Below, piece after piece: positions 12,401 through 55,323 of a DNA stretch of 64,000 nt. The number at the start of each line of letters is the position of its first letter. Within the stretch, counting starts at the first letter, position 1. Position numbers and translations under genes: made by a program. This stretch comes from Raillietiella orientalis (taxonomy: Eukaryota): contig JAYWIR010000031.1 in assembly GCA_036172245.1 (NCBI GenBank), positions 2,418,001 through 2,482,000 of the forward strand, given 5' to 3'. The notes beneath the pieces are model-generated. The model saw nothing but the letters and a program-made list of their open reading frames with translations, was not told where the DNA came from and searched no databases.

Positions 12401-12404
12401 CATC

Positions 12405-14460
12405 GATTGCGTGAATCAGGATCTCCACCTAGAACTCCTAGAACGCCTCGTTCTCCCGTTGCACCTCCTGGCCCATTTTCGCGTTTGCTTGTGCCACGCA
12501 CTGATTTCGATCTCTTTCAGCGCCAGCCAGGTGTACGGCGTTTCGATGCGGCGGGGTATGAGGCAGGGTGACAGTTTAAGTCCGTTACTCTGCAGCATCT
12601 TCTTTGAGTTGATACTGAGTACGTACAGGAAGACGCTGGCCAACCTGCCGTGCTCTTGTTCAGGAACGCCATCCGTGCCTTCCTATGGTGACCACCTGCT
12701 ATTCCCTTTACTCATGACCACCCTGCCGTCCAGTCTCGAGGATTCCTTCGAGCTGATTCGCCGGGCAGCGTGCGTGAGCGTAATTCGGATTAAGAGCGTA
12801 CTCGATCCTATTGGTACGGCGTGAGAGGGGCAGTCCGAATGGATCCGCCTGGGGATCCCGATCGCTTCGTCCTTTGATACTTGAGCGTTCCGCTGGAAAG
12901 ACTCAGCCCAGTGGAAGTGTGGTCGGACTGCCTTCGGAAGGCTACGAGTGCTCTGAGCCCGTTCCACCATGGCAGGTTCGTCCTGCCGAAGCGGGTCGCG
13001 ATATGGATCACCTTCGTTGCTTCCCTCTTGCGCCCCCTGTTTTTTGTTTGCCCGCCCCCCTACTCGGCAAAGCTCCAGGCGCACAGCCTGTTGAGGTACG
13101 CTCTGTGGGGTCCTGTGAGGTCCAGGATCCGCCTCAAAGACTCCGCGTAGGGATGTCGGCTGAGACATCCTGACGCTGGAGAGAATCGAGCTGCAGATGC
13201 AGCTTCGGATGTTGGCCCTGTGTGCCAATCTTTGGTCCACTCCCTGGTGCGCTCCCGCGCGAATGCTCCATCGGCACGGCACCGGAAGCGATGGACTTTT
13301 GTCTCTCCGGCCGCCTCCCGAGCGCGCCACTAGAAGCTTCGGTTCCCACTTGAAACCGCTCTAGCGGCTCCTGGCAGCTCAGGAATGGATCTCCTGCCTC
13401 CCACCGAACTTTAAATCCTGGAGGCAGGAACCGTTGCATGCCTAGGCAAAGCAACAGGATGTTTCACTTCTGGAACTCTGTTGCGCTCACCTCTCCCCGT
13501 ACTGCACGGTGGATGAGGTCTGCAACAGCCAGGAGAAGTGGACTCGTCTGGCCGTCACGGCCCTCGAGGACGCGCTGTCAGCCCTCACGGCAAGATACAA
13601 CAGCTGCCAACCGGCGAGATGAGAGGTCGCCTGCACCATCGCAGGAGCAACACGGCCCGTTGACGGCTGGAGGACTTGCGAGCTAGCAGACGCCGCCACG
13701 CCTCGCCACATCCAGAAGGGACTCCTTTGGTGGAGCAAACATTTGAGTGTGCCACCCGAAGAACTTGTGTTCCCTTCCTCCTGTTTGAACACTTCTGTGT
13801 TCCCCCTTTCTTCTAAGCAGGAGGTCATCATGCTGGTGCATTGGGGTTTTCACTCCAACCACCGGAGAACCGTATTTCCGGGGGATTTGTCTCCCCAAAC
13901 TGTAAGCGGTGCGGGGAATTGGAAACGCTTCTGGACTGCGGTGTTCTCCTGGGACTGTTGTGGAGGCTGGCTTGAGCTCTCTTGCACCAGAGGGACATCG
14001 CGACCGACTTGATGCGTCGTTTGTTTACGCCAGGCAGCCTGTCTTTAGGTGCTGTCATCGCAACGGTCTGTTGCACCCGCGCCATCGACAAGGCCCACCG
14101 AGAGTTGGAGATGCTGGTCATCCTTCGTCAGCCAACCGGATTAGCTAGCGCAAAAATGTCGTCGGCTGCCGAGTAGGCCCATCTTTTAGAGGGCGTTTGG
14201 GGAGAGATCGCCGGCATCCATCGCCGGTTCTGAAAGGAAGGAACGGCCTTCCCGAAGTCCCCTCTCCCCTACCCTCCATATCTTTATTTTTATTTTTGCA
14301 CAGGTGTATTTGTGGTCCCCTCCCTCGTGTTTTGCACTTTCCGTATATCGACCTGGGTGTTGGGGATTCCACCCCCTTCGTCTCTTTTTTATTCTTTGTC
14401 CGGGAACTCTGTTCCCGTATAGTTTACTAATAAACGCCCCGGCGCACCCGGCTGACAAAC
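12405..14460 (+). mobile_element. 5'-truncated family-B element (RT C-half through complete 3'UTR), degenerate
   Basis: Roughly 90% identical by eye (two segments compared) to the reverse complement of 54953-57035; ends AATAAACGCCCCGGCGCACCCGGCTGACAAAC. Confidence 0.92.
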
Positions 14461-15830
14461 AGTTGACCTCTTCTGATCGTCTGGATCTCCTGGACGTTCA
14501 CCGCGGCGATCACGTGGACATTCTGCAGCAGGGCATGGTCGAGGACACCCAGGTTGTTGGCCGCATCTCGTCTGTTGCCGTCGTCGCTCTGCCCGTTGGC
14601 ATTCCAAAAGGCCACGCGAATCCGAATGCGACAGGCGAGTCGAGGTGTTACTCATGGGAAATTGACGGTGCGGAGTCCGCCACCTTCTGTAGCTGGACGC
14701 TAGGAGGAGGAGAGGGGTGCTCCGAGCACCTTGTCTCTCTTCTCCATTGTTGCCGGAACGTTAGTCGGGTTGTCCATAGGTGGGGCGCGCATACTTGGTA
14801 TTTCTCCTCGCCGGGGCCGGACTTTTCTGGTTTTGCGCATGAGGGCGGGGCTCCGCCTCCCTGCACGCGTTTCTACATGGGGTTCGCTTTTTCCTCTGCT
14901 GTCGAGCGTGGGAGATCTGCCTGCGGGCTTCTAACGCTGCCGCCGGTTTCCGTCTTCTGCTCCTCGCTGGTTGACTGAAGGCGCCTTCCAGGCTGTTGGA
15001 GCTTGCGTCCCGCTTTCTTGGTGGGTACCTCCGCTGAGGAGGATGAATTTTCATCCCACAAGTCGGACTCACCTGCAGGGCCTTCTTCATCGGAGCCGAC
15101 CTTCGCAAGGCCTTGCGTTACGGGTTGTCATGCTCTGCGAGCATTGCCGCGAGCTCCTACGCTGCCTTCTCGAAAGTGGCGTCGTCATTGTCGGCGGACG
15201 CGACGCGCAGCTCACTGTGCAAACAGATTGTTCGCCATTGCGAACCTCAGGCGCGGAGGAGATGGCGAGGGGAGGATCCGGGCTCAGAGTGGCAGCTTCA
15301 GGAACGACGACGAGCTCCGGTGCCACCGTGCGCACACGAAATGTATGGAAACGCGGCGCGGCTTTTTTCTTTTTACCGGCTGCGTTCGTGTTCGTCTTTT
15401 TCTCCCTGTGTGACTTTATTCTCTTTCCTGGCCTTTACTAGCTTCCAGCCCTCTTCGCCTTCTACCACTTCGGAATGTTTTTCTTCAACGTCTTTTTCGA
15501 AGGTTGAAGAGCTGGCAGTTTGTGCCGGCCATTTTTATAAGTTGGTCTTACGACCTTAGTTGCCCGTTTAGCCAGTGCTATTTTGGCGGCAGGAGGAACC
15601 GGGCTGGAGCGCTTATGGCACACACTGCGAACGTAGCCCTTTAAGCCGCATAGGTGGCACTGAATGTTCTGACACCAATTACGAATGTGTCCTACTGCAT
15701 TGCAGTGGACGCAATACCGAGGCTTCCCCACGTACGAAAGGTCGACCCACTTTTGTGCGACCTTTAGTTTGTTAGGGAGCCAACCACTCTCATTTACAGT
15801 GACACGCGCTGATGCCTGGCTACCGAACAG
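14461..15830 (-). mobile_element. Family-A ORF1 (two CCHC knuckles, low-complexity tail) plus first ~55 codons of the endonuclease, cut off by the family-B 3' end
   Basis: CVHCNAVGHIRNWC and CHLCGLKGYVRSVC; FWNANG...LLQNVH. Collinear with 62020-63400. Confidence 0.9.
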
Positions 15831-15839
15831 TGCGTCATT

Positions 15840-17116
15840 GCGCAGCGCTTGCTGCCGCAAGGCGCCCCCGCATTACAGGCAGATGAACAGCAAGAACTTC
15901 AAAAGCCTTTCTCGATGATGGAGATCATATCTGTCATTGGAAATTTCAGAAAACAAAAAGCAACAGGGGAAGGTGGCCTGCCCAGGGAGTTCTACCAACG
16001 CTTCGCGGCAGAGCTGGTACCCTTGGTGCACAAACTATTCACGCTGATTCGAGAGCAAGAGAATGTCCCCCTGTCGTTCCGGTCAGCCAAATTACGTCTC
16101 CTTCCTAAACAAGGAGACATCCACAACGTAGGCCACTGGCATCTCATCACAATAGTGAATGCGGATGCAGTGTTGCTTGCCAAAGTCTGGGCTGAGCGAC
16201 TGGGTAGTGTAGCGGAATCTGTGGTCAGTCTGGAACAGTCTTACGCTGTCCCCGGACGAACCATGGAGGTCAACCTTTTCCTCGGCAGCAGCTGGTGGTA
16301 CTTGTAACAACGCGAGGCTCAGCAAGGTCGGAAGAGTCCTGGACTCTCCACTGACCGAGGGGAGGGAAGCCCAATGGGAGAAAACATGGCTGGAACCCCT
16401 GCGATCGCAGTGGATTTGCGTAAAACTTGCGACTGCGTCGACTAGGGGCTCCTCCTTAGGGAGCGTAGATGCCCATCGTTCAGAGTGCGGAGAAAGGGAG
16501 ACCTTTCTTTACTTAATCATGGACTGTGTTGCTCTCCGTCAGATGTGGGATCGACTCTCGTCTACCCTAACCATTCCTGGGCGACCCCAAGAACATCTTT
16601 TGACGCCTCCATACGTAAGATGACATGCCAGCCTCGGAGTGTGTGGCAGTGCTTTGCTGCATACACGGGATCTTGAAGAAGTGGACCGCGTCAAGGAGAG
16701 GCCGCACCAGTCGGAATGCCATTCACTGGGCGACCATCTCTTTGGAGAAGGCTTCCCATTAGCGCCGACTCAGACAGCATATGCCGGCACTTGTCTGCAT
16801 CGAAATATCAATGCAGAGGCCGCCTAACGGCGCACCGTGTTCCCTTCCCTTTCCTCCCCTCCCCAAAAAACCTTGTCCCCCAGGCGTTTGTCTTTTTTTT
16901 GTTCTTTTTGTTTTTTTGCGCTTTGGGGCCTCTGAAGTGGCCTTTACCGGTCTGTGGGTCGGTAAGTACAAGTGGTCCAAGACAGCTTGGATATGTGTGT
17001 TGACTGAAAAAACAAAAAACAGAAACAAAAACATTGACAAGAAAAAGATTTTATTATGAAATTTGTATTTGTGAAAATTTTTATAGTGAAAGCCCCGCCT
17101 CACCCGGTTGAAAACC
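15840..17116 (+). mobile_element. Family-C element with a large internal deletion (RT N-half joined at about 16460 to the Cys motif) and 3'UTR
   Basis: KATGEGGLP and HWHLITIVNAD are homologous to 2700-3270, then the sequence jumps to a region homologous to 4755-5395; ends GAAAGCCCCGCCTCACCCGGTTGAAAACC. Confidence 0.85.
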
Positions 17117-17709
17117 CCAAAGCGCGTGCACGGTTGCGAATTCTTCGAGCTCGTTCCGAACGGCCTCTTTGGTCATCCGGAACGATATGCCGGTCATGTG
17201 CACGATCACAAACCGATCCTTCGTTATCGGGAAGAGCCTCCGGCTTCCCATCAGCACACGGGTCCTGAGGAGTCTGTGCGCAAGAGTTGCCTCCTTGCAG
17301 ATGACTCCGACAAATTGTCCCCGCTTCTGATGGACATTGCCAGAAGCTCCTCTTTTTCAACGCCGAGAGCGCGCATCGTCTGTGAAAAGGTACGCGCGTT
17401 CCCGGGTGAATTTAAATCACCTACCTTGTACAGGAGGTGTGGGTTATACCCCTCCTCCAGGTAGGCGCTCATCTCCGCCATAGCCACCGGCGTAGGTGCG
17501 GCAGCTACGGCGTTCGAAGCCCTGGGTAGGGACGAAGGCGCATCAGTGGGGGCGGGGCCTCCACTTCCAACTCCTCCGGGTGCAATGACCTCATCGCCTC
17601 AGATCCTCACTGGTGGTGGCATCAGGCATTGCTGCCTAAACCACCACCCACACCACACACAAACGCAGAGAAAAAAGCATGCACTCAGGAGCGTCGAAAG
17701 AACACGTCC
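17117..17709 (-). mobile_element. 5' terminus plus ORF1 N-terminal fragment
   Basis: GGACGTGTTCTTTC at 17709; AGGCAGCAATGCCTGA start context shared with 52494-52510; AEMSAYLEEGYNPHLLYKVGDL. Confidence 0.85.
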
Positions 17710-18650: not shown

Positions 18651-21000
18651 CATTAAAAATGCGTGCCAGCGCCTTCTTTGCTGGCCGCATTCTGCGGGAA
18701 ATACTGGACTTTTCCGTGAGTTGCACGTGGGTGGAGAGGGATCCCCTTGCCATGGTCACGCCCTTCCAGAGAAGGGTGCTTTATAGCAGTTGGACACCGA
18801 GGAGGCAAGTCTCTTGCCCTATCGCAGGCAGAGAGATGATGATGAGAGGCTGGACTGTGAAAGTGCTGGCTTACGCCACCACCGCGAGAGTCCTGCGCGG
18901 AAGCTAACGAAATGGGGCGAGTTGCTAGGCATCGCGACTTATGATCTGAAGTTGCACGCAGTGATTATCGGATCCAGTATTCTTCCTCTGAATTTTTAAT
19001 AGTCGGGGCTTCTGTTGTTGCATTGGGGGCTACACTGCAACGCGCGCTACTTCCACTGCTCGCAGGTAGAAGCAAATCGTGATTGAGCCAGGTGCGGGGA
19101 ACGAGAATCCTTTCCACACCTCTTAGTTGAAAGTGTTGTTCTCCGGACCCTGTTGGAACGTTTCGGAACGACCTTAAGAAATCCTGGAAGGTACCCTTCC
19201 CGGAAATTTTTTCGGCTCCTCTTCGTGAGGGATGCTCTGCTGCCAGGCGCTGTTGTGGCAGCCCTCAGATGCATCTACGGCATTGTGAGAGGAACAACTT
19301 GTTGACGGCGGGATGGACTCGTCGGCAGCTTTTGCCGTTGCTGTCGATTTTCACAAAGCATAATACGGCGTCGACCAGGAACTCCTTCTAAAGCTCCTGC
19401 AATGCATAGGTTTACCGGCCGTTCTGCAGTCCTACCTGCGCTCCTGCTGGCACAAAGGGATAATCAATAGTTGTTTCAGCAGCCGGCAAGCACACAGCGT
19501 GCCAGTGAACTGCGTCATCCGGCAGGGTGACAGTCTGTGCCCCTTGCTCTTTAGCAGCTACTTCGAGTTGATGCTCAGAGCATAAGGGAAACACTGGCAA
19601 CCCTGCCGAGCTCGTGTGCCGTCACGCCTGCTGTATGGTTCTATGCGGATGATCTTTTTCTGCTGCTTCCTGGGTCCACTCCGGCGTGTGTGATTGAGGA
19701 TTACTTATGAGTTCTTACACCGCGGGACCGTGCTGGAAATGCGCAAAAGCGAAGTTGTCCATCGTTCATGTCGGTTTGGCGTGGGCTGGATGGTCGGACT
19801 GGATCCGCTTGGGGGTCCTTGCGGTCAGGTGTTTCAACTACCTTGGAGTTCCGTTGGGGGACTTCTGCGTGTCAGAGGCCTGGTCCGCCTGTCTTCAAAA
19901 GACATCGTTGGCGAAGGACCCGTTGCACGAACTTGCTTTACTTGCGGCAACGGCCGCGGGATGGAACTCAATTGCGGCCCCCCTCCTTTGCATCCTGCTT
20001 TTTGTTTTTCTCACCCCTGCAATTGTTCGCAAAAGTGTAGAGGACCTCCTACGGAGAGCCCTGTGGGGCAAAGGGAGTTCCCATGTGCTATTAAAAGATC
20101 TGTGTGCTTCACGTAGGGATGGTGGACTTGACCTCCTAACGTTGCAGCGCATGGAGCTTGAGCTCAGATTTCGGACTCTGTCTCTATCCGCGGAATTATA
20201 AGACACGCCATAGTGCGCGCAAGCAAGGCTCTTGGCACGACGAGCCTCAGGATTCGGCGGACTTTCGTCGTTTCTGGCTACGCGCTGCGACAGGCACACC
20301 GGATGCGTGCTTCGACTGCGTCGAATGTCCGCTGCAGTTTCAGAGAAACTTTGGATCTCCTGCGTTCCCGGGAACTACTCTGCTTGGCTGCGGAAGTCAG
20401 TATCCACGTGGAAAAAGACACCCCGAAGGATACAAGGATTAGTTGCCTGAGAAGGAAAACTCGCTGGACGCTGCAGGAGATCATGCAATTTCAAAACACA
20501 CTTCTGTGGAAGCAGGTTACCCCTCATGTTCTTTGGTATACTTCAGACAGTAACAAGCAGTGAACACGGAAAGTGTCTAGCGTTATGGACAACAGGACGC
20601 GACCGATAAAGGCGTGAACATCTCGTCACTTCGCAGACGCTGCGATTCCAAGTGCCCTCATAATGGACTTTTACGCTGGAGCAGGGTCCTCGAATCATCT
20701 CCGGAGGAGATAAAGTGGCTCCCAGCGTCTTGGAAGAGTGGCTCCCTTCCTCTGATGTGGCAGGAGATGGTGTTACTCGTTTTCCATAAGGGACCTTGCA
20801 AATTTCGCCTCACCCACCGGAATCGTGTAAATGTGTATGGCCGTTTTGCACGTTTCAGAGAGAATGGGACCTTACCTCACCTACTTCTGAACTTCATTGC
20901 CTTCCTTTCCCTTTGGAATCGTCTTTCTACGATCCTGAACATTGGTGGAGGCATACCCAGGAACATGTTCCGGCGAAGCTCCTCGTGTGCCTCCGCTCCT
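18650..21000 (+). pseudogene. Two adjacent old ORF2 remnants (family-A C-terminal part to about 19290; RT/C-terminal part from about 19320)
   Basis: LREILDF..CTW.E, RQGDSL, FYADD at about 19640, YLGVPLGDF and WLPASW, with many stops. Confidence 0.8.
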
Positions 21001-24000
21001 CTTCACTAATCCTGATAAAAATCTGATTCAAGAAATTTTGCGGCTTTCGATTACACAGAGAATCTTTCAGAATTTCAGATGAACTGATTGCCCTAATGAA
21101 TCGAGTAAACTTTTTACCGGACAGTTGAGTTCAAAAGAGAATCACTTTTATACACCAGAGTCACAACGAAATACATTTTCAATTCCACTATAATACTCTC
21201 TAGTGTGTGATGAGCCCTTTTCTCAAGGAGCCCTTTAATGACTCATCATTACGTCTGTTACAGTTATTCTTCAGAAACATGAACTTCTGTGAGGTACTTT
21301 TTTAGGCGGAACCCCTATATCTGCGTGGGTGGCACCTAACGTCACCGGTGACCTACCAAGATTCGGTCACTTTACAGTAGGCATTCTTTGGGTAAAGTCT
21401 ATCCTAGTCGCGTTTGCAAATTAGTGATATCTTTACAAAAAGAAAGGGTTAGATTTCTTCATATTTCATGACCACTAGAATTTTCATATCGTCTCCGCGT
21501 AGCAAATTTGAAAATAGAAAATAAAAAATTGCTTATTGCACTAGAAAAATGGAATTCCTTTTCTTGCAAACCAACATTTCAAAGGTTTTAATTTTTTCTA
21601 TGTGTTATTAACAAAAGGACGAGTCATCTTGCACAGCGAATAATGACTGCTTCAATCATCAGCACGGTGAAAGAGGGAAGTGGATATGAATGTTGGCAAG
21701 AAGTTTATTTTCACTTTATTAATTCGATACAAGTCAAAACCCATCAAAGGCTGTTTTCGCTACAGATGGTCAAGGTTTTTTGGTTGCTCAGTAGCTCTCG
21801 AAAATTCCAAAAGGCATATGGAACCTGTTTCAAATGTGCAATTCACATTGAATGGGGTTTGAAGCACGACGCCCTCGTTTCCACTTACTTCCTCACTGAA
21901 AGATTGAGTTTAAGAAAAAGGTTTCCTTGCGATTAAAAAGTGGACGCGCACTTTCAATGTTGGTAACGTTTCTGAAGTCTCATTGGATAATTCTTGTAGG
22001 AGGTTTGACCACACCATCCCACAGACGTCCGCATTTCGGGCTCGAGGTACAAGAGTTTTGACCAGAAAAGTAGCAATTTCGGGAGACTAAGAAAGGCCGC
22101 CCTACGAACTTGAAATTTTTAAAAGGTTCGATTAGTTTCCGAGTTTTGATGCTAGATGATACAACTACGACCTATCGAAGAAACTGAGCGTATTTTTTTC
22201 GTGCGTCACCAATTTACGGCAGATGCTTGTATCCAGGTAGGCGATTACGTTGTCATGGAAAAGGAAAAGAAGCGGATGTTCAAAGAATGAGTGCTTTTCC
22301 AGATCATAAGTAAACACGGATGCGTTATTCATGCAAAAGGGAGGCTGGTGTTTGAGAGTTTACATAGGAGGGTATCTTACTCGATATTCGGTGAAACTAA
22401 GCAATGACATGGTCCTCTTATGAAGTTAAGATCTAAAAATACATTCACTGGAACGCCAAAAAAAGACTAAGGAAAACGATGTAATTTTTTGCATGTGCAT
22501 TGCCTCCTTACCGTAACCAACACCGAGCAAGATTGTCTACGAGTTGAAGGCAACTTATTCGTAGTCCATGCTATCTTGCACGAATTCCGTGGTTCCTCAA
22601 GGGGTGGCGTCAGAAGAATGAATGAACACTTTCCTGTGGAATCCTCAAACTTGATGTCGTTAATGAACTGTCGGAACATCAATGCATTCACATCAGCGTT
22701 GTTCATTTTAAGGCAGAGAACTGCCATCACCATCGGCAGCCACTGAAACGTGAAATTTGTCGAAACGAAAGCCTTTTACTATGTTGTGCATGGTGGGCAG
22801 TGTTTAAAATTAAAGGCTGCGAAAGTCAATCACTATTCTCGCCTCCATCTCAAATGCACATGGAAACTCTCGAAAAAAGGGAGTTGTGCTTCAACATAGC
22901 AGAAAGACCATTGCACAACGTGATTGCTTCAATACTCCCCGTATTCTAAATAACGCGTGTTGTATCTTTATCCTATTTGGCGTTTCCACCTTCAGTATGC
23001 AGAGATGAGTTTAATTTTTCAAGCTTCGAAGATTCTTTCCTCTGGAGCTACCTTGACAGTAATAAATGTGAAGCAAATATTTCCGTTGTTCCAATCCCCT
23101 GCTCTTGCATATCTATCACCGTACGAGTGTGTTTTCGACGATGTTGACATAAGGTAAAACCTCTCACTTGGTCAGCGTATACCTTACAGTTGCACCCATC
23201 GAGGAGAGGTACGAAACCGCAGAATGGGGCGGCATTTTGCAATACATCTTCGAATTTAAATTCCGAAACACGAAACTGCCATTTCCTCGTTAGCATAGGG
23301 AGGATGAATTTTCGTAAATCCTCGAGAGGGAGCGTTTCGCATGAGAGTAGGCCCTAGCGTGCATTTTTCAAGTTGCGGTATGCTGGTTTGCATTCGGTGT
23401 TTCGCGAACGTTCACCATCAAAACGCCCTACCCGCCCAACAGGTTGTCTGCATAACCATTAGACATTTCCTCCATGGGAACTCAGTTAACACTTGAGAAT
23501 TTCAAAGAAGTTAACCACATACGCACATTTAGAAGCATCATTATGCCGAAATTCCTCTGCACTTCCTCTCTGAAGCAAAAAGAAGAACGCACTCAGATAT
23601 TAGAAGAACTGAAGTTCCTTTCTTAGAATGTGGTGCGGAGTCGGTCAATTTATAGTTGATCGAGGGAGCACAACAGGCCAACTCCTTGCGTAAGTGCCAC
23701 AAGATGGTTCTTGTCAAAACATGGACACATCATCTCCATACATGCCAGCAGTTTTTCAAAATTTTTTTTTTCAGGATCGCAGAGAAATCTCAAGATTCTT
23801 TTCTATGAGCTGCAGACTTTTCTCTTGCTTCTGAGCGCTTATGCATGTGTGGTCCGCTGCATCATTTATCCCTGATGTTCGCGGAGAGCAGCAGCCAATT
23901 AGGAGCTGCCGTGAAAGGTGGAATAACAAATGAGAGAACTCTTTTCTGGAACAGAAAGAAAGGTTTAACTGCAGCAATGGATGTTGCGAGCATCCTTCTG

Positions 24001-24602
24001 TGCGCTTCGTCCACTTTTCTCCCTCTCAATTTCTTAGGCTCACTTTATCCGCTTTAAAGAAGCTGTCAACAGAGAGAGGCATATTGGGAAAGCCGTTGAT
24101 CACTACTACTACTATTAAGATTTGAAAAGTTTGAATTTGGAAATGAAGGGTACTGATGAAAAATGAGTTCGATGCAGGGAGAAGAAAACATGGTTCAAAG
24201 GTGAAAACAAGCCTAAATGTGATTAATAGGAACCTCAAGATATGGTATGTCGCTTAGCTATTTGCTCAAGAAGTTGGGCTAAGGATTATTATTGGGATGC
24301 TTTCTTACCAAGTAGGAAATAGGCAAAACCATGGTGTGATTCCCCTACTTGAGCAGGCAGAGAAGTATAAACGTGAAACTGCGTTCGGAAAGCATACTTG
24401 GTTGCTTGGAGGATAAGTGCAGGGGAAGAACGATCTTATGATTGCGTTTATACAATCAACTGCTTTGGTTGTTTACTTCCGAGCTGCTTTAGCTAATGTA
24501 TGCAAAAAATTGGGAAGGACAAAAATGATAATAAGGAAGAAAATAAGATGAAAATCGTCTATGCTACATAGAGCGAAGAAGAACCACAAATAAATCTCTC
24601 AG

Positions 24603-29499: not shown

Positions 29500-30440
29500 A
29501 GCTCCGACAGATCAGGGGGCGGAAGTGGCCGTGACACTCTTCCAGGAATAATACCTGGATTCTCTAGTTGATGACAGATCCGCGTGGACTGTTGGAACAT
29601 CAGCGGGCTGTGCAACGAAATCAGCAGACGAGTCACGGCCTCCACCCTGCGTGAATTCGACATTGCTCTTCTGCAGAGGATCCACGTGATCACCGCGAAA
29701 AACGTTCCGGAGATCGAGAGGATCGCAGGAGAGCGACTGATGTGGCATTACGCGACCACAACACTATTGCGGTCGAGTTTTTGGTCAAGCCAGCCGTCCA
29801 CGCTGCCGTGAAGGGTTTGTGCTTCGACATTGGCGGTCAGGACTCCCAGCTGATACCCACCGGACCAACACCATCAACCTCGTCGTTACCAACGTGTACT
29901 CTACCATCGAAAACAAAAGTTACGCGCAACGAACTCAGTACTTCTAATACCTGAAGCATGGTTGGCTGACGGATGCAGGAATGCCCAGGACTCACCTGAT
30001 AGCTGGGGACTTTCACCTTCACGTGTTGAAAGTTGCGTCCTTCACGCAGAATAATGATCCCATCAAGTTCTGTTCCCCTATGTGCGCCATAGACAACTTG
30101 ATATAGGGAGACCAGAAAATCCAGGACAGAATCAACCACGACTACCTCGTCCAGCACACGTGCGAACGTGAAGGGAAACGAGGAATACTTTCGTCGACGC
30201 TCTCCGACTATTAACGGCTCGAATGCAGCGGCTGCTCACACGAAAAGGGACCCCTGTCCAGGACGTGTCGCCTACGGGGAACTGCAACAAATCACCAGAT
30301 ACGGCGGAACATCTTCACCAATTCCTGAGAGGCGTAACTCTCCAGCGTCAATTGAAACCCGGTTGCCCTGGGACGTTCTTTCTTGCCAACAAACATTTTT
30401 TAATCCGGTGACTGAACCATTGGATCAGCCTCACATTAGA
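29500..30440 (+). pseudogene. Degenerate ORF1/ORF2 junction and endonuclease domain
   Basis: TTCCAGGAATAA, CWNISGL, LLQRIH, LVVTNVY, AGDF. Confidence 0.8.
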
Positions 30441-30464
30441 CACTGTCAGCCTGCAGGATACCTG

Positions 30465-43400: not shown

Positions 43401-45286
43401 TGAACTTATTCTTCGTCTATCAGAGGGAGGTGCAGGCATCGTTCTGGATTTTGCAACTCTAGGTGAGACTGCGGATCACTCACTGGTGTCTTCTTTTAAT
43501 TTTTAGGGGTTCTCTGCCATTAGTCAGGTATCAGTCTTTTGCGGGAACTTTCTGAGTTTCTGAAACAATTCCAAGTAATGTATGACAACAGCAAAGGAAG
43601 AAAATCATGAGCACACGATGTAAAGAGGCATTTCCTAGATTGCGTTCCCTAATACCCACGGTAAGCATTTCTTTATTTCGACTCATAAATCAAGAAGCTA
43701 TTCAATGACTTATGTTTTAGATCCAGAAGTATTAATTATCTGTTGAGAAGTCCATGAATGCGGACAGTTTAGTGCATTCCTCTCCTTTTCGTAGTTCCAC
43801 TCTTTCAAGTGATGTCTAAATGGTCAAGTGGTCAACTAGCAAACGGAAGGCCAGCCAACAAGAGATTGATGTTTGACAAAGGAACTGCTTCCTATTATCC
43901 TCTATCTTCTTCTGCTATCAACTCGAAATTTCTCTACCGATAATCACACAGCCTTCCCTTCCCATTTCTCAGTGTGGAGTCCCATCACCGATCCACCTAT
44001 TACAACAAAACCAATATGAAAAAAACTATTAGAAATTTCGTTCTTTAGAAAGGAAATGAACGAAATCCATAAAATCGGAAGTGCAGAGCAAAATAAGAAA
44101 GAAAAATGTAAAATCATGGGAAACTGAAAATGAGAAATGAAATGAAAAGGAAGCCATACTCATTCAAGTTTTAAGTAATACCTTCATAAAGGAGATCGAT
44201 AATGTGAGAAAATACATTCCAAGCATGTTTCATTTCAGCTGACTGATTTCGTTCACAATCACCTCCAATATTTCTCAACTTCATTTCAGCCTGATGGCAA
44301 TAAAAAGTCACTTTTATAACCTTTCACGGCTGCTGCGCAGTCCCACCGACCCCACTAAAAGAAACACCAATGAAAGTCCCTTCAAAGTACACAACACTTG
44401 TCTGTCCTCAAGTAAATTAAGAAATGAATGAAGAATTCGAAGGCTAATTCGAAGGCTCGGTGGTGGTTACTGAAAATCAGTTGCACCCAAATCAAAGTCG
44501 AGCTACGCTGCTGCGGGAATTTCAGCCACTACTCAAGGAAGAGTACGTCTTGAGGGATGCTGACCGACTGTCAATTGCAAAGAAGCAAATGTGAGGGCAT
44601 GCTAGAGAGCCTTCTTTTCATTGGTTTCTTACCACTGGTGGAAGAAGAAACACAGTCAAGAATCAAGAGCGAACCTATTTTATCCATAAAAAAATCAAAC
44701 CCTATCATAGGAAACATTCTGTCCCACGGAGGTGTCATTCAGAATATCGCTGGTGCATTCATAAGGACTTGTAATCTGCAGAGCAGTGATTAGGTTTCAT
44801 AAAAAGGGAAGACAGAAGTACCGAATCTTGCATTTGTAATGTGTGCAGGTATTTATGCTGATAAAATCGAGAGGTGCCTCAGTTTATATAGGCAATTCTA
44901 AGGTCTGAAACTGTAACATAAATCAGCAAAACTTCGAAAAAACTTTGTTCTCATGGAGTAGCCCAAATATTCATAAACTTTGAATCGAAATCATTGCCTG
45001 AATTTCGTATGTGCAGAAAATTGATGCATATGCAAAATTGCAATCCCATAAGAACTGTGGATAATAATCTGCACTTTCCTCGGGTAAATGTAAATTTTGT
45101 AAGCAATATGTAAACATATAAAAATGTTGTTCCTATTATGTTGTAAGCACTTGAAATCGAGCACGGTTTGAACTTTGGACAGTTTGTCACCAATGGTTCT
45201 CAATTGAAAATCGAAGCGCGGGAGGTTGGCACGCTGTTGGGGGAATTTGCTGGGAATTTACCGGCAAAAGGTGAAAGGGCGTGAAA

Positions 45287-45583
45287 ATGAACTCAAAAGG
45301 CAGTGAACCGAAAGTTCTTGTAATGTGTACCGGAAGTGTGGCAAGCATAAAAGTCCCGGAACTGGTGCGGGCTCTTGAGGAACGTTTGTCAGCTCATGTA
45401 AAAGTCGTTGCCACCGTGAACGCAGCAAAGTTTTTCTGCCTGGATGGCATCTATACAGATGATTTGGAATGGAAAACTTGGGAGAAGAGAGGAGATCCGA
45501 TTCTGCACATTGATCTGCGCAACTGGTGCGACGTGGGGGTAATTGCACCCTTGGATGCAAACACTCTGGGAAAGATAGCAAAC
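45287..45583 (+). CDS. PPCDC: First coding exon of phosphopantothenoylcysteine decarboxylase (HAL3/CoaC flavoprotein family)
   Basis: KVLVMCTGSVASIK, W..RGDPILHIDLRNWCD and IAPLDANTLGKIAN are hallmark PPC-DC/HAL3 motifs. The 99 codons end at a phase-0 AAC|GTAAGT donor. The downstream exon(s) (CDNLL, PAMN) were not found by eye. Confidence 0.92.
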
Positions 45584-46594
45584 GTAAGTGGAAAATCAGG
45601 TTCCTGAAATGCCCATTAATCTCATTAAATGAAATTTCCGAATAAACCTATTTGAATAGTTTACTTCATGGCAAAATTCGACAGCCCTTGGATGTTATTT
45701 TTATTATCAATTCTACTTACCGTAGTGTACAGTTTGAATGTGTTCATTTACTCATTTCTGAACTACATAGCCATTTGTTTTACCTCAATGCTTTTCAACT
45801 CTGGGTCTGATCAGCTTTATATGGTATCTCCTATATCTACTGCCGCATTGTTAACCAAATAACAAGCCTACATCTTAGGAGAAGACTGTTTTAATTTGGA
45901 AAAGATGAACAGATTTTTGCACCGACATTCAAAAGTAAATTTGTATTGCTAATTGGTGACCGTTTTTTTCTTTGCGCATTCATTTTTTGATCTAGGTTTC
46001 TTATATCAACTTCATTATCTAGACATAACTGGTTTTCAGTTTGCTTTCAAGTGCAGAGCTTGTGTAGGATGTTCCATTAGTTGGCCCTTAAAGGTCATGT
46101 CGTAGGGTAGTGGTCAGACATGAAGGAATTCGCAAGGTTTTCTCCTTGATGCACTCTGAGCAAGAAAACTGATTAGCAAAGAGAAAAGAAATTTACCAAC
46201 CAGATACCTGAAAACAGTTTTATCAGAGATGGGGTCATAGAAGGAGGCAGTGCTTGGAAAACACACTAACTTATTAACTGCTAAAGTATGTCAATTGGAA
46301 AGCAGCTTTCATGGATGTTTGTTTGTTATCATTTCTAGTGAATCTTAATAAAAATAATGCACCCTTTTTAGTGATGCGTAATATAATGCAGATAAAGAAA
46401 GGTAAAGGGTTAAAGAGACTGATCTTTTATTGTGAGAGATGAAAATTTATCATCATCACTATATCAGGACTGTTCTCATCATAAAAATTCAAGTCCATGA
46501 ATAAGGTATTATCAGAAGTGTTTTGTTGAAGACTTATTGCACATTACTATGCAAACAATTTTGCAACAGATGGTCAATTGAATTCCTGGTCAGC

Positions 46595-47215
46595 CTACAT
46601 TCATCTGGGTGTGGCACTGGTAGTGGTTAAAACTGGGACAAATGATAGTTGACTTCCGGATCCTTCCAGGAATAATGGAGTGGGGAGTTCCCCTCTGGTT
46701 GTGAAGGGGCAGACCCCCTATTGCTGGGGGACCTTCTGCATCATACTGATGGTGTAGGTGTGTTGCCACCACCTCTCCAGAGACTGCAGAGAAGTGAACC
46801 AGTCCCTTCGGGGAAGCTGCATCCCTTCTGGGTTCTCTTCAGAGGAGTAAAAACAGGAGTGGATTCCTTGTGGGGGATTCTTCCAGAGCAGAAATTCCAG
46901 GAGTGCATCCTTTCCTGCATTCCCTTCAGAGAAGAAAGAATGGAGGGTACCCCCCTGGGGGTCTTCCAGAGAGAATAAGGAAGGAGATTCCTTTTTGGAT
47001 TCTCCTTTGGAGACAACCAGGGTGGAGGTGATCTCCATTTCCGAGGATCCCTCCCCAGGCATGAGAGGAACGGGCTCCGAGTTCTCCTTGAGTTCATAGG
47101 GTGGACCCTTCCAGGGCGCCTCCTATCTTGAAGCATTACCCACCCTCGGGTGGTGTGGAACCATGTCAAAGAACTGTGAAAACAGAAAAGAAGGATTTCC
47201 ATCAAAAAAAAAAAA
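46595..47215 (+). mobile_element. SINE-like repeat, copy 2 (lacks the tRNA head, ends in an A-run); probably intronic
   Basis: Shares CCAGGAATAA..GGAGTGGG, GGGTTCTCTTCAGAG, TTCTCCTTTGGAGACAACCAGGGTGG and CTCCGAGT..TTCATAGGG with copy 1. A-run at about 47203-47214. Confidence 0.7.
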
Positions 47216-50200
47216 CTAAAGCTAAATTTGAAAATTGTTTTCAATTTGGAGCTTTAGGAGTCCTAGGACAACTTTATCAGAACTGCCAGATGAATGCAGA
47301 ATGAGTTGAATGAAATGAAGATGAATTGAAAGGAAACGATCGAATCTTCTTAGAAAGAAAAATTAAGGATCGTGTAGACATTTATGTATTCTCTACAGAG
47401 TTTCTTTATGTCATGAGAAAGCAAGATCCATTGCTAGCTATGATTTGACAAATCCCATCCAAGAGGTTGGTCTCGCCTTTGTGATTTCATTTGCTGAGAA
47501 GAAAGAAACCTTTAGCTTATGAAAACTAAACATCGTATGATATTTGTGTAGTATTTTAAAATTAAACAATGAAACAATGAAAGGTGCAGTTATGAAAACA
47601 AGTTGACCTGAATTTATGTTTTCATAAATTTGCACCCAACTTAGTAATCAACTCAAAGCAAATAGCAAAAAGTATCAGCGCACGTGATACAGTGAAACGA
47701 AAAAAAGAAAAAGTCAGAAATCTAAATATTGTTCTAGTAATTAACATCTTTAAAGGACATGTGACTGTTTTTATCACAAACTGTCAAGTAACCAAGAAGC
47801 TGAAAGCTATACACCAGGAAACAATTAAACGTGGAACCATCAGACATTACTCTTGTAGATAGATGAGTGTTTATCATCCTTGAAATACCTTTTTTGCTTT
47901 TAAAATACATATAGTTTTCAAGGATGCTGCAAGGAAACAGTGTAGGAGCTTGTGCAGTGTTTGCTTATAGTTGGTTATTGAAAATAAGGAATAACTTCTT
48001 ATGGGTCTTTAATTCAGGCATCTTGAAATTCAGATATTGTTTTGATTGTTTTGTTTTTCTCACATGTCTTCAGTCTGAGTGTAAGTATGCACACATGTGT
48101 GATGCTATTGATGTGAAATGCAAGTCTGTGTTCTGGTACTTGTATTGAAGTTATTTACAAATTCATGCACGTAATTTATAAATGTAAGCTATGGATTCAT
48201 GGTACTGTTGCATTGTCTGCTTTGAGTATGGAGAGAATCTTACTAATGTGAGTGTTGAACAAAGCGTACTTGTTCCAGTGATGAGTAATTGGGTTTATTT
48301 TCAAATTCCTCTGCAGAATGTGAAGTATTTCTCCATGTTTATGAGAAATAGTGAGTGCCAACGAAGCAGCCAGTTGAATATTGAACTAGTTAAAAAATTA
48401 TCCGGAAACTCTTATTAATGTGTGGGTATTTCATGTTACAAAAAAAAAGCAAAGACGTTTCGGGAATTCAATAAAATTTTCCTCGTGCTCTCCGTCGGTA
48501 CAAACAGTAAGTTTGTTCGGCTGACGGTTTTGCCAGACTTTATTGGATCCACGTTATGGTACGCTTGGTGGTTTGGATCTGACTTCTTGAGCAAAGTCAT
48601 CTTTTCTTTGAAGGTTCTGTGGTCGGAATGTTTCGTGGAAACGAGTGGTTTCCTTTTCCAAAAACAGAATGGCAACTCATTTCTATCTTTGTTGGCCAAT
48701 CACCAAATCATGCACATCACGATCGTTTCAAACTGGGGTGCTTATAGACTATGCTTTGTAGGCTGTAGATGATCCTTCAGAACTGCCTTTTTTTTTCCAT
48801 TGTAATCTGATATGTAATTGATTGTTTGTTGGTTTTTTTTTTTTGCTGCCCCACTTACGTTTTAGTAATCTGTTTTCTGGATTCTCGTTTTCCAACTCAG
48901 TTCAAGAGGCTTTTTATTTCCACAAATTCATTCAACATCATTGCCTATTTGAGGTTTGAAGGGATTCGTGTCGTCTTTCGCATATAAATGCAAGTGATTT
49001 CTGATTCTATGCAACATGATAGATGTTTACTATGTGAACTGTTTTCATGCAGGTTTTCATTTGACATGTTCGAAATTCCTTAGTTCGAATCCACTGCTTC
49101 AATTTTTGAGCATTACACTGGGATCTGGGCAAGGTTTTCGAAACCGCAGCAGATTTTCTCGTGTTTCTTTAGGTAATCCTTTGTACACAGTAATGATACA
49201 CAGTGGTGAGTCACTTTTTAAGGAGGAAAGAAAAAATGCGTGTTCATAATAGTCTTCAATGCATTCCGGAAGCAAAACAACAGCATTCCGTAAAAATATT
49301 CTTAGCCATGCTTTTTGAGTATTTACGTAAGGAGAAGTCATGATGTATTTGTTGCATAGAAAAATCAGCGAAACGAATAGCGCATGGAGGGTCTCCGCGA
49401 TTTCCTGATGAACCAAAGAAGCTGCGGTATGCGAAACTCCAAGCTGCGGTGTTTTGCAGCGTGGAGTTTGAACGAACCCTCTGTATCTGTACCTGTTTTT
49501 CTTTTTTTCCACTTGAGATGTCTGCTTTACTTTGAATACTTCGGGTGGTTATTGCGCTCTTGTCGTTATTACGGGACAGCCGATACCTTTCCCCTGCTGC
49601 AGAATTCGTACTCTCGGCTGTGCATGTGATAAATTTAGGAGTTGGGAGCTCCGAAACGAATCTGAATCGAATCTGATCAGTTTTGCACAACTTTCAATTC
49701 CATCCCTGTACATTCTCTCCGGGAGCTTCGGTACGCACGTACCTCCAATACCTTTCCAGATGTGGGAACCCTCAATGCATGATCTTTGCTCTTGAAAAGG
49801 TTGTGGGAGTGCGTCTCTTCTGCATCTGTTGCGCATTCCAGTGGTTTCTTGCTTTGATTTCGAAGCACGAATTGTCTTGGCGGTTGAAAGTATTTGTCAT
49901 TGGTTTTTGCTTTCATCTATGACATGGAGCAATTTTGTTTTCCCACGGGACTGAAGTAAGGGCATGCTCTCATTTCTCAGCCAACTTTGAAGTCTTTAGT
50001 TTAGTACTTGGAAGTGTATCCCGAGATTTTATGTGACCTGCAGCCCAGATTAGTTTGGTTTCCCTAATTCGGTAGTCATCACTGAAAAGTACAGTTTTGG
50101 CTCCTCGGTTGTGTTCTAACGTTCAATCTCTCTGTGTTTTTCTTTGTAATTTTGATTTCATTTTACTTTCTCAGCACTTCTGGAAAGTTTGGTAGATTTT

Positions 50201-52189
50201 CAATTAGTTTTATAATACTTCAAGATTTTTAATTATTTGCAAAGCATTTTGAAGCGGCCTGGCTTCATGTTCTCCAGTCGAGCTACCCGTTCCGGAAAAG
50301 GAAACGCAGAAAATGCTTTCCTGAGGGCGTTTTTGTTACATTAGTTGATGTGCAAGAACCCACTGAGCACTTCAGTGTGGTTTGTATTCCCAATCTGCTC
50401 CGGGCTGGTCGAATGTGGTAGTCAGCTTGTGAAGTAATGTACCTCTATCTAGTGTTCCATGGCTTTCTTTCGAACGGTGGGATTATATGTTAGGTTGTTC
50501 TTTGGAGTCCAGTGATCTGTGAGCAGTTTCGACTAGAATCTGTCAGGATGTAAACATTTAGCAGTAATCCAGCCCTTTTGGAAATCACAGCTATTTAACC
50601 TGGGTACTTTGCTTTCTTCCTTTCTTTATTCTGCTAGGTATTTTCTAGTCTTTCCACGAATAGGATGTTGTTGCTCAGTTCAGGAAGGGCGTTCCGTTTG
50701 TTCTAAAAGAATCCCCTAGTTGCCATTTGCAGTGGTTTTGTATCTTGTTCTGTTTTTTTCCGTATTTTTTTCCTGAGCATTCGCAGGGCTACAGAAGCTC
50801 TATCGTTATTGTGCCGTTCTTTGTTAGAATTTGTGATTATATTATCATAGGTGAAATGATACTGTAGAAACATCGAATTGTTTCCTAAAGCAATGTAAGA
50901 AGAATGATTTGTAGTATCACAAACAAAATCTGTGGCTTGTGCGAATTTAATTGGCGAAAAAAAGTTGCAATGTAGATAATTTTTCTCGAGGAGAGTCACT
51001 GTTAATGAGGTTGGCATTGGCTCGTGGTTCTTAGTGTAATCTATTTTGATTTTCAGTTGAATGGTAAGTGATCCTCTGCGTCTCTCTAGACACGTCTAAG
51101 TTTGCATCTGTTTTCTGGATCTTTTGTGTTTCTAATTCCTGCAAGCTGTGGTCATAACAGGATGCATCGAGGAACGGATGCAGAATTGCTCTCGTTTGGT
51201 GGCATTGGATGTTTATCAGTGTCTTAGGTTTTCCCCTGGCGCTGCTAGTTGACAACGGACTGGTTGTAATTGGAAAAACTTTGATCCGCCAGCACGTCGT
51301 CTTTTTCGAATGTAATGAAAACGTAATTTTGTATATTATTGCGAAAAATTTCACCTACGAATGTTGTGAAAGCATTTCTTCTAATGCAATTCTGCATTGT
51401 TTTTAATCTCTTTTATTGTTTTGTGAAGTCCTTTTACTTAAGCAGTGCTAGGAGGTTTTCGTACAAGATTGAGGGCTGATTCGACTGATGGTTTCAAGCT
51501 AGAAAACATGTTTTCGCAGTTAGTAGGGATATCTAAGTCAGCGCTATTGGGATAGAGACGGTGAAATGCTGCAGGAAAAGGCAATCACATTAATTAATGT
51601 GTATTAAAGAAACCACAAATAAATAAGATTCAAATGAAAACGTATTGAATGCATGGGATATGCAAGTCAGGTATATTGCTGTGAAATTCTGATACAATTG
51701 ATTTATATTCATGTTTTCATGGGTACATTGTACTGTTCATTTTCGCAGTTATACTAGTAATACCATATGACAAGGCAACAGCCGTATCGCAATTCAAACG
51801 CTGCAGTGATACTTTTTTTTTCTATTAAGTACAACATGCTGAATGTCAAGCAGCAATCATAAGATTCTATATCATGAATTTCCGTTGTATGTTATAATTA
51901 TATATTAAGTATCAGCATATTGATAAATGTTTTCGAGAGGTGCTTTGTAATGGAATGAAAAAACCCACAATGGTTCAGACTGCGTTCGTTTGCCACATAT
52001 CAATCCATTGCTTCACTGGCAAGGAGGCGTGAGGGAGCGCACTAATGCTTTGTCCATAACCTCGCTGCAAGAGCGAGTTATGGAGCCTCAGCTCGGAGCT
52101 ACGACCCCATGCGTTCCAATGTCAGGAGGCCTAATCCTCCATCCCTGCGTGGGGAGCACAATTGTTTTAGTCAGACGTGGGACCACCTT

Positions 52190-52405
52190 GAGCCTTACAG
52201 GGCTATCCTTAGGTATCCCTTTGTCCAACTCTTTAATTGGGTTGGAGCGGGAAAAAAAAAGTAGAGTGAAGAGAGGGGCCGCGAACACCTTACAGGCCGC
52301 GCCCGCTCCTGCAAGTAAAACTTGACGCTCCGGAACGGACCGATTGCCAACTCCAACTTTTGAAGACGGTCGGGACAGACTTCCACAACGCAGTCCAAAG
52401 ATTTA
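52190..52405 (-). pseudogene. Family-C ORF2 thumb-region fragment
   Basis: DRLQKLELAIGPFRSVKFYLQER matches 3770-3840. Confidence 0.75.
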
Positions 52406-52417
52406 TGCGCGCTGGGC

Positions 52418-52565
52418 GGGCGTGTTTTCTCGGTGCTCCTCTGTGCTAGGAACCCTTCCTAAGTGCTTGCGTTCGGCGGTTCGCTGATCGATCAGGCAGC
52501 AATGCCTGACACCACCGCAGTGAGTGCCAGGGGGCGACGGCAAAGACGTCTCAAGAGGCGGTGGA
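52418..52565 (+). mobile_element. 5' terminus (5'UTR plus ORF1 start at about 52502)
   Basis: GGGCGTGTTTTCTCGGTGC...GATCAGGCAGCAATGCCTGACACC is homologous to 12007-11880 (-) and 17709-17600 (-). Confidence 0.8.
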
Positions 52566-53420
52566 GGTTTTTCACCCGGGTGAGCCGGGGCTTTCATTAT
52601 TAAAATTTTTACAATACAAAAAATTTCATAATAGTCTTGATTTTTTCGTTGTTCTGCTTGTTTTTCAATCGGAACACATGGAACGACTGTCTTGAGGGAC
52701 TCGTCCTTACCGACCCGCAGGCCGATAAGGTCCTCCATACTGACGCGGGGGCGGGAAAAACAAAACGAAAAAAAAAAAAGAAAACGCCTGGGGGTAATGT
52801 CCATTGGGAGAAGGGGGAAGGGAAGGGATCACGGTACGCCGTGAGGAGGCCTCTGCATCCGGTCACGGATGCGGACGAGTGCCTGCAAATGCTTTCCAAG
52901 TCGGCTCCAACGGCCGGCCTTCTCCAAGGAGATGGCTGTCCAGTGGGTGGCATTCCGACTCTTATGTCCTCTCCTTGACGCGGTCCACTTGTCCAGGATT
53001 CCGCGTATGCAACAGAGCACTGCTACACACCCGCAAGTTGGCACGGCGTCCCGCATCAGGAGGCATCTGAATAGGTTTTTCGGGTCGCCGACCGGAATGT
53101 TCAGGATCGACGAGAGTCGGTCCCACATCTCCCGTAGGGCGACACACTAGAATCAGGTGGGCGAAGGTCTCCCGTTCCCCGCACTCTGTGCAGTTGGCAT
53201 CCACATTCCCCGATGTCCAGTGAGAAAGGCGTGCTCTGCATAACAGTACCCAATGGAGCAGAAGCAACGCCATCTCTTGCCACTGCAGGGAATCGTGCCA
53301 TTATCCCGAGCATCTGGGGGCCACTTCACCTCCTCCGGAGGTACGTCGAGCAGCGCTCCCCAGCGTAAAAGTCCGTTCGGCGGGACACTCGGGGTACTAG
53401 CTTCCGCTATTTCCCGGGAA
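52566..53420 (-). mobile_element. 5'-truncated family-C element (C-terminus plus 3'UTR)
   Basis: Closely similar to 4535-5395; CTECGERETFAHL; ends GAAAGCCCCGGCTCACCCGGGTGAAAAACC. Confidence 0.9.
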
Positions 53421-54952
53421 GCGCCCAGCTGCTGCTGGGCGCGTACACGTTCGTGACCACGAGGCGATGGAGGTGAGACGTCCACTCCCACCGAATCGGT
53501 CCCCGATACAGCACGGGCGTGGAGCGCCGTCGTAGCGGCGCCAACGCCTGCAGCCGCGGCGGAATTGAACGCCTACTTAAAGGACGAGTATAACTCCTCT
53601 CCTCAACAAGGTAGGCAATCTCTATGCCGGCCAGTTTCGAGGCCGACAAGCAGGCGCTGGACTAGGACTGCCTCTTCAAAGTGCATTTCCCAGTGTCCAA
53701 GCGTAAGGCGTCTGGTCTCTACCCAGAAGTCGGTAACTTGCGGGCCCGAGGCAGAGTTCGCAAACGCAGCTTCCATCCCCGTGGCACCCCGCAGGAAGGC
53801 TGGACGAAGGTCCACCAATCCACCGAAGACCCTTTCCCTTGCCGAAGAGGAGGACATGGCTTCCGGAAGCGAGGGTGCCATTAGCGTGGGCGAATCCCGG
53901 AACTCGTCGCCTGAGAGAATCCTACGCTCAGACACGGAGGGCATTGAAGGGGTACAAACCGTACAGGTGTCGCAGGGGCCTCAGAAGGCCGAAACTCCCA
54001 TGTCCATCTCACCCGCCTCGGAAGAGACTCCTCGCCAGAAGAGCGACACGCTGCGGAGGATTGCCCTCGATCCTCGTGGCCTACCAGCGCAGCCTCAACA
54101 ACCAGCTTTCATCTGCTTCAGATGGTTGCTCTGATGAGGGAGAATACCTGGATCTCCTGCCTACCGGCGAACTGCACTGCCTGGCTTCAGGAGTCAGTTT
54201 ACGCGTGGGCCAAGATCAACGGCACAAGCGAGGCGGATAACAAGTGCATCTGTCGAGGACCCAAAGCTAGACAGCCCCTGCAGGAGATCATCAACAAGCC
54301 GCGAAAGCTTCTGTGGGCTTCTTTCATTCTCCTTGCCCCCGTTCTGTCCTACCTGAAGAACATTGGGAGCAACAACGAGGTAGCATCGAGGGAAGTGTCC
54401 TGCCTCATGCGAGGCAGGAGAAAACCTTTTAAGGCGTGGACGAATCGGGAGCTAACGGACGCTGCCACCCCGAGCGTCCCGCCTCGAGGACTTGCGTGCT
54501 GAGGAGAACTGCTCACAATAACTCCGGAGGAGAAGTGGTCCCCAGCGTGTTGGGATAGTGGCATCCTTCCGTCGAACTGGCAGACGGCGTTGCTCTTCCA
54601 GCATTAGGGACTGCTAAGTACAGCACGGCCGAGGTTCCTCCTCCGTCGAGGCCTGTATCCGAATCGGCCTCGACGGAGGAGGAAGAACTGGTGCGCGATG
54701 CACCCCCTCCATCCGTTCCGCCCGATAAGGTGGCGGGAACCGTACTGCCACGTTCCCACGAATAACCCCTGGGCTCGCCTGTCGCCGAAGGATCCGCGTG
54801 GCCTGTTGGAATGTACACGGGCTGCGCGACGACGGCAACAGGCGAGATACAGCCGACACCCTGCGAGAATTCGAACTGACGCTTATGCAGGAGATCCACG
54901 TGATCACTGCAAGAGACGTCGAGGAGATCGAGAGGATCGCAGAAGATCGGTT
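53421..54952. mobile_element. Fine patchwork: endonuclease scrap (-), ORF1 pieces (+), family-C ORF2 piece (+, about 54040-54625) and ORF1/endonuclease junction (+, about 54660-54952)
   Basis: LVVTNVYAP (-); AELNAYLKDEYN; ENTWISCLPANCTAWLQES; CACGAATAA followed by ACWNVHGL..MQEIH. Confidence 0.8.
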
Positions 54953-55323
54953 GTTTGTCACCCGGTTGCGCCGGGGCGTTTATTATAAACTATCCGGGAA
55001 CAGGGTTCCCGGACAAAGGGGAAAACAAGAGACGAAGGGGGTGGGATCCCCGACACGCAGGTCGGTATGCCGAAAGTCCGGAACGGGAGGGAAGGGACCA
55101 CAAACACACTACTATATAAAAAAATAAAAGAAAAATATGGAGGGCAGGGGACAGGGGTCTTTGGTAAATCCGTTCCTTCCTTTCAAAACCGGCGATGGAT
55201 GCCGGCGATCTCTCTCCTTACGCCCTGTGGCAGATGGGCCCACTGGGCAGCCGACGACATGTTTGCGCTGGCTAATCCGTTGGGCTGACGAAGGATGGCC
55301 AGCTTCTCCAACTCTCGGTGGGC

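Follow-up and report, generated by a model that had tools for sequence, protein, structure and literature searches.

Two copies of one family of long interspersed nuclear elements (LINEs) end at the same base, in antisense, of the endonuclease gene of related LINEs in a 64,000-base stretch of the Raillietiella orientalis genome (GenBank assembly GCA_036172245.1, contig JAYWIR010000031.1, positions 2,418,001 to 2,482,000; hereafter the window). We call this family B, its copies B1 and B2, and the interrupted elements host 1 and host 2 (Table 1). Both B copies and all the 3′ ends used as controls lie inside this one window. That two B copies end at this site is confirmed, and their independence as insertions and difference in age are well supported. 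We consider it probable that B inserted at least twice, at different times and by sequence-specific target-primed reverse transcription, in antisense, at one position in the endonuclease gene of a sister LINE lineage.

Insertion junctions and ages of the two copies

Both B termini lead directly into antisense endonuclease-coding sequence, from the N-terminal part of that region, in two different copies of related LINEs. With a slash marking the junction, B1 reads ..GGCTGACAAAC/AGTTGACCTCTTCTGATCGTCTGGATCTCC at 14460/14461, and B2 reads ..GGTGACAAAC/AACCGATCTTCTGCGATCCTCTCGATCTCC at 54953/54952 on the reverse strand. Two further copies of the host lineage are uninterrupted at the junction column: el29 (29738/29739) and host 3 (62019/62020), which reads ..CGCCAATAC/AGCCGACCCCCCGCGATCGTCTCGATCTCC and whose codons ..IAGGRL/YW fall within the Exo_endo_phos domain. 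In host-type endonuclease genes this position reads ..AATAC/AGCCGACC... The first-pass annotation had quoted three junction sequences, which occur in the window exactly as written there, and had placed both junctions at one base; they do occupy the same column of a six-sequence alignment, within 2 nt. The last two bases of B are AC, and AC also precedes the junction at the empty site, so that in both copies the nick may sit as much as 2 nt to the left. The different 5′ extents that had been reported are equally clear: B1 starts sharply at 12403, around codon 630 of open reading frame 2 (ORF2), and B2 spans the whole of ORF2 plus about 1 kb. Two unguided insertions in LINE targets of about 6 kb would be expected to share base and orientation roughly once in 12,000.

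We aligned B1 plus host 1 to B2 plus host 2 as a single block. The inserts are identical at 1772 of 2055 bases (86.2%; 283 differences, 13.8%), whereas the host flanks, from the junction on, are identical at 187 of 250 (74.8%; 63 differences), a significant contrast (Fisher p 8e-6). Other alignments of the flanks gave 171/220 identical bases (77.7%; 49 differences) and, with MAFFT columns, 179/255 (70.2%; 76 differences). Across 74 windows of 261 columns within the insert, identity never fell as low as in the host flank, the minimum being 79.7%. The contrast holds when CpG sites are left out (12.7% divergence in the insert versus 22.8% in the flank; p 5e-4) and when transversions alone are counted (6.6% versus 14.8%; p 2e-5). 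Host-flank divergence is therefore about twice that of the inserts by three measures. Hand counts in the first-pass annotation had the right direction, yet the 35 differences in 100 nt given for the hosts were too many (22-30% here), and the 10% given for the inserts applies only to their last 100 nt, where 9 of 99 positions differ.

The state of the coding sequences points the same way. Read in the B2 frame, B1 is interrupted over 558 codons by six stops and by several indels that shift the frame, whereas B2 ORF2 (55324-58923, minus strand) is fully open over 1199 codons, stop to stop. Had a block been copied, the neutral share of each copy would be half of the 13.8%, that is 6.9%; after this level of random substitution 0 of 2000 simulated B2 frames stayed open, and after 3% substitution 4% did. 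An intact ORF2 in B2 beside a decayed one in B1 thus indicates that B2 is much younger than B1 and that the two are separate insertions. Their contexts are also unlike, since host 1 continues for 1.35 kb into the ORF1 region and host 2 stops after 250 nt. A tree of the hosts built on 262 columns places host 2 beside el29 (support 83/91), apart from host 1. The claim that these are two independent insertions, and not one duplicated event, is supported by the doubled divergence of the flanks and by the unequal decay of ORF2.

Probable target specificity and competing explanations

The sequence GATCnTCTnGATCTCC occurs exactly four times without mismatch in the 64 kb, each time 15-30 nt from the junction column of a host-type copy; shuffled sequences lead one to expect 0.30 matches even at up to two mismatches. 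Two of these four motif-bearing sites are occupied by B. The motif is absent from the homologous position of B2's own endonuclease gene (Table 1) and from that of a B-like element (37327/37328). This distribution would fit an element that recognises the host lineage and spares its own gene.

The 3′ ends of other families (5394, 9028, 17117, 52567, 60751 and ~33890) adjoin six other places. Three of them (5394, 17117 and 52567) belong to one family and have mutually unalignable flanks, and the ends at 9028 and 60751, with the tail TGGCA/TGGCAA, adjoin antisense LINE ORF2 at codons ~374 and 546. Hence, within the window, two of two B ends lie at the site versus none of six from other families. 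These counts support the proposed sequence specificity, though on a tiny sample from one window. A published rule calls a LINE target-specific when one kind of sequence makes up more than 20% of a family's flanks (PMC4494074). Here the same target base stands beside both B copies, a sample of two and not a genome-wide share. We also considered whether relatives of B share the site and rejected it, as the B-like element (34384-37503) terminates within another LINE near codon 225, and does so in the sense orientation. As a separate observation, four of the seven recognisable 3′ ends, both B ends counted, face antisense LINE coding DNA.

If insertion is sequence-specific, the B endonuclease would place a nick in the sense strand of the host gene, at the position 5′-..GGTCGGCT^GTATTGG-3′ (in the wording of host 3), and the freed 3′-OH would prime copying of B RNA from its hairpin-bearing 3′ terminus. 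That both copies end in the same complete terminus is what priming from the 3′ end of the RNA would give, and a 2-nt AC/GT match between RNA end and target may assist it. Recognition would probably involve host sequence on the primer side, including GATCnTCTnGATCTCC at 15-30 nt from the nick, a motif that B's own endonuclease gene may have lost or never had. Where the nick falls, which enzyme cuts there, what the motif does and whether B benefits are all inferred. A bolder version makes B a specialised parasite of a sister LINE lineage: the B endonuclease evolved to recognise some 16-30 bp of that lineage's endonuclease gene, while B's own gene diverged at this stretch so that B spares itself, with a harmless home gained, a competitor destroyed and an arms race as the outcome. 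We hold this to be possible but rather doubtful, and the idea put forward in the first-pass annotation, of a landing site that does no harm and at once knocks out a competitor, is speculation.

Several observations weigh against site-specific insertion. There are just two B copies, both in one window. The motif could equally be explained by plain phylogenetic difference, marking the host clade instead of a recognised site. We found no target-site duplication or direct repeat at either B copy, and the host is not restored on the 5′ side: codons 123 onward adjoin neither B 5′ end. Both of these ends meet, instead, inverted 3′ fragments of other LINEs (C at 12402/12403; F2 at ~59906-59950). Recurrent breakpoints are common in this cluster of LINEs, which makes a shared position less exceptional than it would be in ordinary DNA. 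Finally, host 1 and host 2 as sisters are not formally rejected (approximately unbiased (AU) test, p 0.086, at a cost of 5.3 log-likelihood units over 262 columns), so that the host tree alone leaves the choice between one event and two unsettled.

The recurrent breakpoints are of three kinds. Around ORF2 codons ~1056-1061, the starts of C and F2 are separated by no more than a few codons, and a third truncated fragment (52567-53419) starts there too. The reverse transcriptase motif ..AFDCV.., codon ~630, is where fragments from three different families begin or break (12018-12081, plus strand; 12403, plus strand; 52388-52409). Two endonuclease fragments (9029-9642, minus strand, and 41513-41603, plus strand) come from different elements but share a start near codon 145, which is 72-78 nt away from the B site, and their upstream flanks are unrelated. 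These breakpoints and the fragments at the B 5′ ends may hint at 5′-truncation hot spots or at two RNAs primed at one break. Some 150 nt upstream of the reverse transcriptase motif are also common to 11868-12017 and 52410-52557 (73% identity).

These breakpoints, along with several head-to-head junctions, the absence of a target-site duplication and the missing host halves, favour a breakage or priming hot spot in host DNA or RNA, cut by any LINE endonuclease of the group or arising from DNA structure or internal priming, at which B ended up twice as the active family or by inserting at existing breaks. None of the six 3′ ends of other families is there, however, and two host-type copies are intact across the position. 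Moreover, the complete B 3′ terminus was joined both times, as expected of priming at a nick and not of a random break. On balance we find this explanation improbable.

Regional or chromatin targeting to LINE-rich DNA, as for centromeric LINEs, with a short nick preference and a coincidentally shared base, is very unlikely in our judgement. It draws on the density of the cluster, in which 41 ORF2-like fragments on both strands cover 25,063 of the 64,000 bases (tblastn, with the sole intact ORF2 as query) and most LINE 3′ ends adjoin other LINEs, and on a published case of centromere-targeted LINEs described without a sequence-specific site (Celine, PMC11288735). Within LINEs of ~6 kb, however, the coincidence of base and orientation would keep the odds estimated above, and other families of the same cluster lack any such recurrence.

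Least probable of all is a single ancestral B insertion copied as a block, with host flanks that diverged faster, for example through gene conversion from other host-type copies in tracts ending at the junction: it would account for the identical junction, for an inverted LINE 3′ fragment starting near the same codon at both B 5′ ends and for the AU result, but it predicts equal decay of the two inserts, against the stops and the simulations reported above, and must accommodate host flanks twice as diverged as the inserts, flanks that are not collinear further out, and C and F2 that are just ~68-70% alike across ~190-220 nt and otherwise unalignable, and hence not one copied unit.

Three further readings were tried and set aside. 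A target-site duplication around C was rejected, since the 62-nt reverse transcriptase fragment (12018-12081) and the B1 start cover the same motif in different families. The fragment at 9029-9642 does not qualify as the other half of host 1, because its homology gives out 78 nt before reaching the site and its identity to host 3 is just 65%. Twin priming of the host as source of the junctions fits copy 1, but the neighbour of copy 2 (54026-54664) is on the wrong strand.

Family B, its 3′ terminus and related systems

The B2 ORF2 product gives full Pfam matches to Exo_endo_phos, which passes the cutoff over residues 74-281 (E 5.7e-15), and, downstream of this endonuclease, to RVT_1 at residues 522-793 (E 2.2e-18). 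A zf-RVT match scored 18.7 bits, under the cutoff of 27.5, and the translation contains a CX2CX7HX4C string. Among proteins of solved structure, the ORF2 product is closest to human L1 ORF2p (E 3.7e-38), far ahead of R2 proteins at about 3e-13. Protein homologues numbered nine, the best 26% identical, and are unnamed or plant L1-like proteins, for which reason we assign B to no clade. ESM Atlas returned generic endonuclease-reverse transcriptase clusters only, and a search of viral and prokaryote genome contigs with B ORF2 found no relative. Fourteen metagenome-contig loci matching the B 3′-end pattern were discarded as chance matches, having no blastn or tblastn similarity to the window. By its predicted proteins and its terminus, family B is an L1-like LINE of the apurinic/apyrimidinic endonuclease (APE) type without a poly(A) tail. 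The first-pass annotation had taken B for a member of the Tx1 clade; the sequence comparisons can demonstrate L1-like affinity only. Upstream of ORF2, B2 has a frame of 384 codons (58752-59906, minus strand) without an early ATG, basic and of low complexity, and unlike every other ORF1 in the window, including the ORF1 of the host lineage with its RRM-like region and CCHC knuckle (63029-63733, minus strand). With its open ORF2, B2 may be a recently active element.

B1 and B2 have a common terminus, ..CCGGnTGACAAAC, in which a short hairpin is followed by TGACAAAC. Several distinct LINE families of the window have the same plan, namely AATAAA, a 5-bp hairpin CCCGG-N5-CCGGG and a short tail (TGACAAAC, TGAAAAAC or TGGCA), with no poly(A). 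This common terminus is probably a recognition element for the reverse transcriptases of these families, and if so, one family could mobilise another's RNA. The Zepp LINEs of green algae carry a poly(A) tail at the 3′ end. Unlike theirs, the ends found here (AATAAA..CCCGG-N5-CCGGG-TGACAAAC or similar) have no run of A.

LINEs that insert in other transposons are known from the Tx1 clade, which is described from animals: Tx1 itself inserts in the piggyBac-type Tx1D, Tx1-Mar in Mariner-N4_AMi, and the crocodilian families Tx1-8_Crp and Tx1-4_AMi target long terminal repeat retrotransposons (PMC4494074). Like these, B is an APE-type LINE at one position of another multicopy mobile element, and in the Tx1 LINEs specificity is ascribed to the element's own endonuclease (PMC4494074). 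Unlike them, B has as its target the protein-coding endonuclease region of a related LINE, in antisense, and the Tx1 cases rest on hundreds of copies (PMC4494074) as opposed to two. The Zepp LINEs target existing Zepp copies (PMC8226300), and Zepp and ZeppL are L1-type LINEs (PMC8226300, PMC3446292). The portions of these two accounts at hand give no single-nucleotide site and have Zepp hitting its own family, whereas B hits a sister lineage and its own gene is without the motif.

Other systems share part of this behaviour. The ribosomal DNA-specific R1 and R2 also insert with nucleotide precision in a multicopy sequence and have a defined 3′ end that is not poly(A) (PMC1919474, PMC10499050); their targets are host genes, and that of B is another retrotransposon. 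R2 uses a restriction-like endonuclease, and the similarity of B to R2 proteins is far below its similarity to L1 ORF2p. Celine of poplar, like B, lands mostly in other transposons and in a confined chromosomal compartment, but it has unique target-site duplications, no shared sequence site and regional targeting (PMC11288735). For Cnl1 arrays, the literature consulted describes nothing at the level of individual sites.

A keyword search of the open-access literature, in which the original Zepp papers were not covered, returned no description of a LINE whose target is a defined base within the endonuclease-coding region of another LINE. The absence of precedent asserted in the first-pass annotation was nevertheless too strong, given the published transposon-targeting Tx1 families (PMC4494074) and copy-targeting Zepp (PMC8226300). 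We see in B a new target for a known behaviour, for which site specificity, resting on two copies, is the best explanation. Site-specific LINEs show how an element can multiply without harm to the host, and in their endonucleases nature provides examples of DNA recognition that can be retargeted. If specific insertion by B is true, competition between transposons would join the known reasons for target choice, and the build-up of LINE-in-LINE nests, for example at algal centromeres, would be explained. A pair of related endonuclease genes, one with the site and one without, would also become available for the study of specificity and self-avoidance.

The surrounding LINE nest

The window holds a nested LINE-in-LINE cluster, in which LINE 3′ ends adjoin LINE sequence and 5′ truncation is frequent. 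Host 1 is collinear with host 3 (14475-15820 versus 62034-63394, 71.8%), and its codons 68-122 are matched on the minus strand (tblastn). Host 2 aligns to host 3 at 78% (54703-54954 against 62272-62018). The 5′ end of B2 is placed between 59906 and 59949. ORF2 of host 3 breaks off at codon 546, where F2, another LINE, cuts into it with its 3′ end.

Table 1. Elements, motif sites and 3′ termini in the window (positions are those of the whole stretch).
Feature	Position	Strand	Description or basis
B1, 5′-truncated decayed family-B copy	12403..14460	+	ORF2 codon ~630 to stop, then ~370-nt 3′ untranslated region, hairpin and TGACAAAC
Host 1, 5′ part of related LINE	14461..15820	-	ORF2 codons ~122 to 1, then ORF1 region; antisense at B1 3′ end
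B2, long family-B copy	54953..59906	-	3′ untranslated region 54953-55323 (371 nt), ORF2 55324-58923, upstream 384-codon frame 58752-59906
Host 2, related-LINE piece, 250 nt	54703..54952	+	just upstream of ORF2 to codon ~122; antisense at B2 3′ end
Host 3, related LINE, empty site 62019/62020	60753..63900	-	ORF2 codons ~1-546; ORF1 with CCHC knuckle upstream
el29, fourth host-type endonuclease region	29504..29899	+	empty site 29738/29739; motif 29709-29724
Motif GATCGTCTGGATCTCC, host 1	14475..14490	+	15-30 nt from junction
Motif GATCCTCTCGATCTCC, host 2	54923..54938	-	motif search
Motif GATCGTCTCGATCTCC, host 3 empty site	62034..62049	+	motif search
Homologous position in B2's own endonuclease gene (58558/58559)	58559..58578	+	motif absent
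C, inverted 3′-terminal coding fragment of another LINE	12094..12402	-	head to head with B1 5′ end
F2, inverted 5′-truncated 3′ part of another LINE	59950..60751	+	head to head with B2 5′ end; own 3′ end adjoins antisense host 3
Hairpin termini	5357-5394, 8994-9028, 14424-14460, 17078-17117, 60717-60751	+	AATAAA, hairpin and tail
Hairpin termini	52567-52603, 54953-54989	-	AATAAA, hairpin and tail

AT-rich blocks (GC 38-45%; 20000-30000 and 44000-52000) separate GC-rich LINE blocks (55-64%). Pfam searches of 19 open frames, 17 in the AT-rich blocks and two in LINE-rich stretches, matched no family, and neither Rfam families nor tandem repeats were found across the whole window. Large internal deletions occur in the LINE copies at 5395-9028, 31518-32468 and 15837-17117 (all plus strand), and the deletion joins link ORF1 to ORF2 codon ~298, codon 272 to 834, and codon 639 to the 3′ end. 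These internal deletions suggest frequent template switching or deletion in this group of LINEs.

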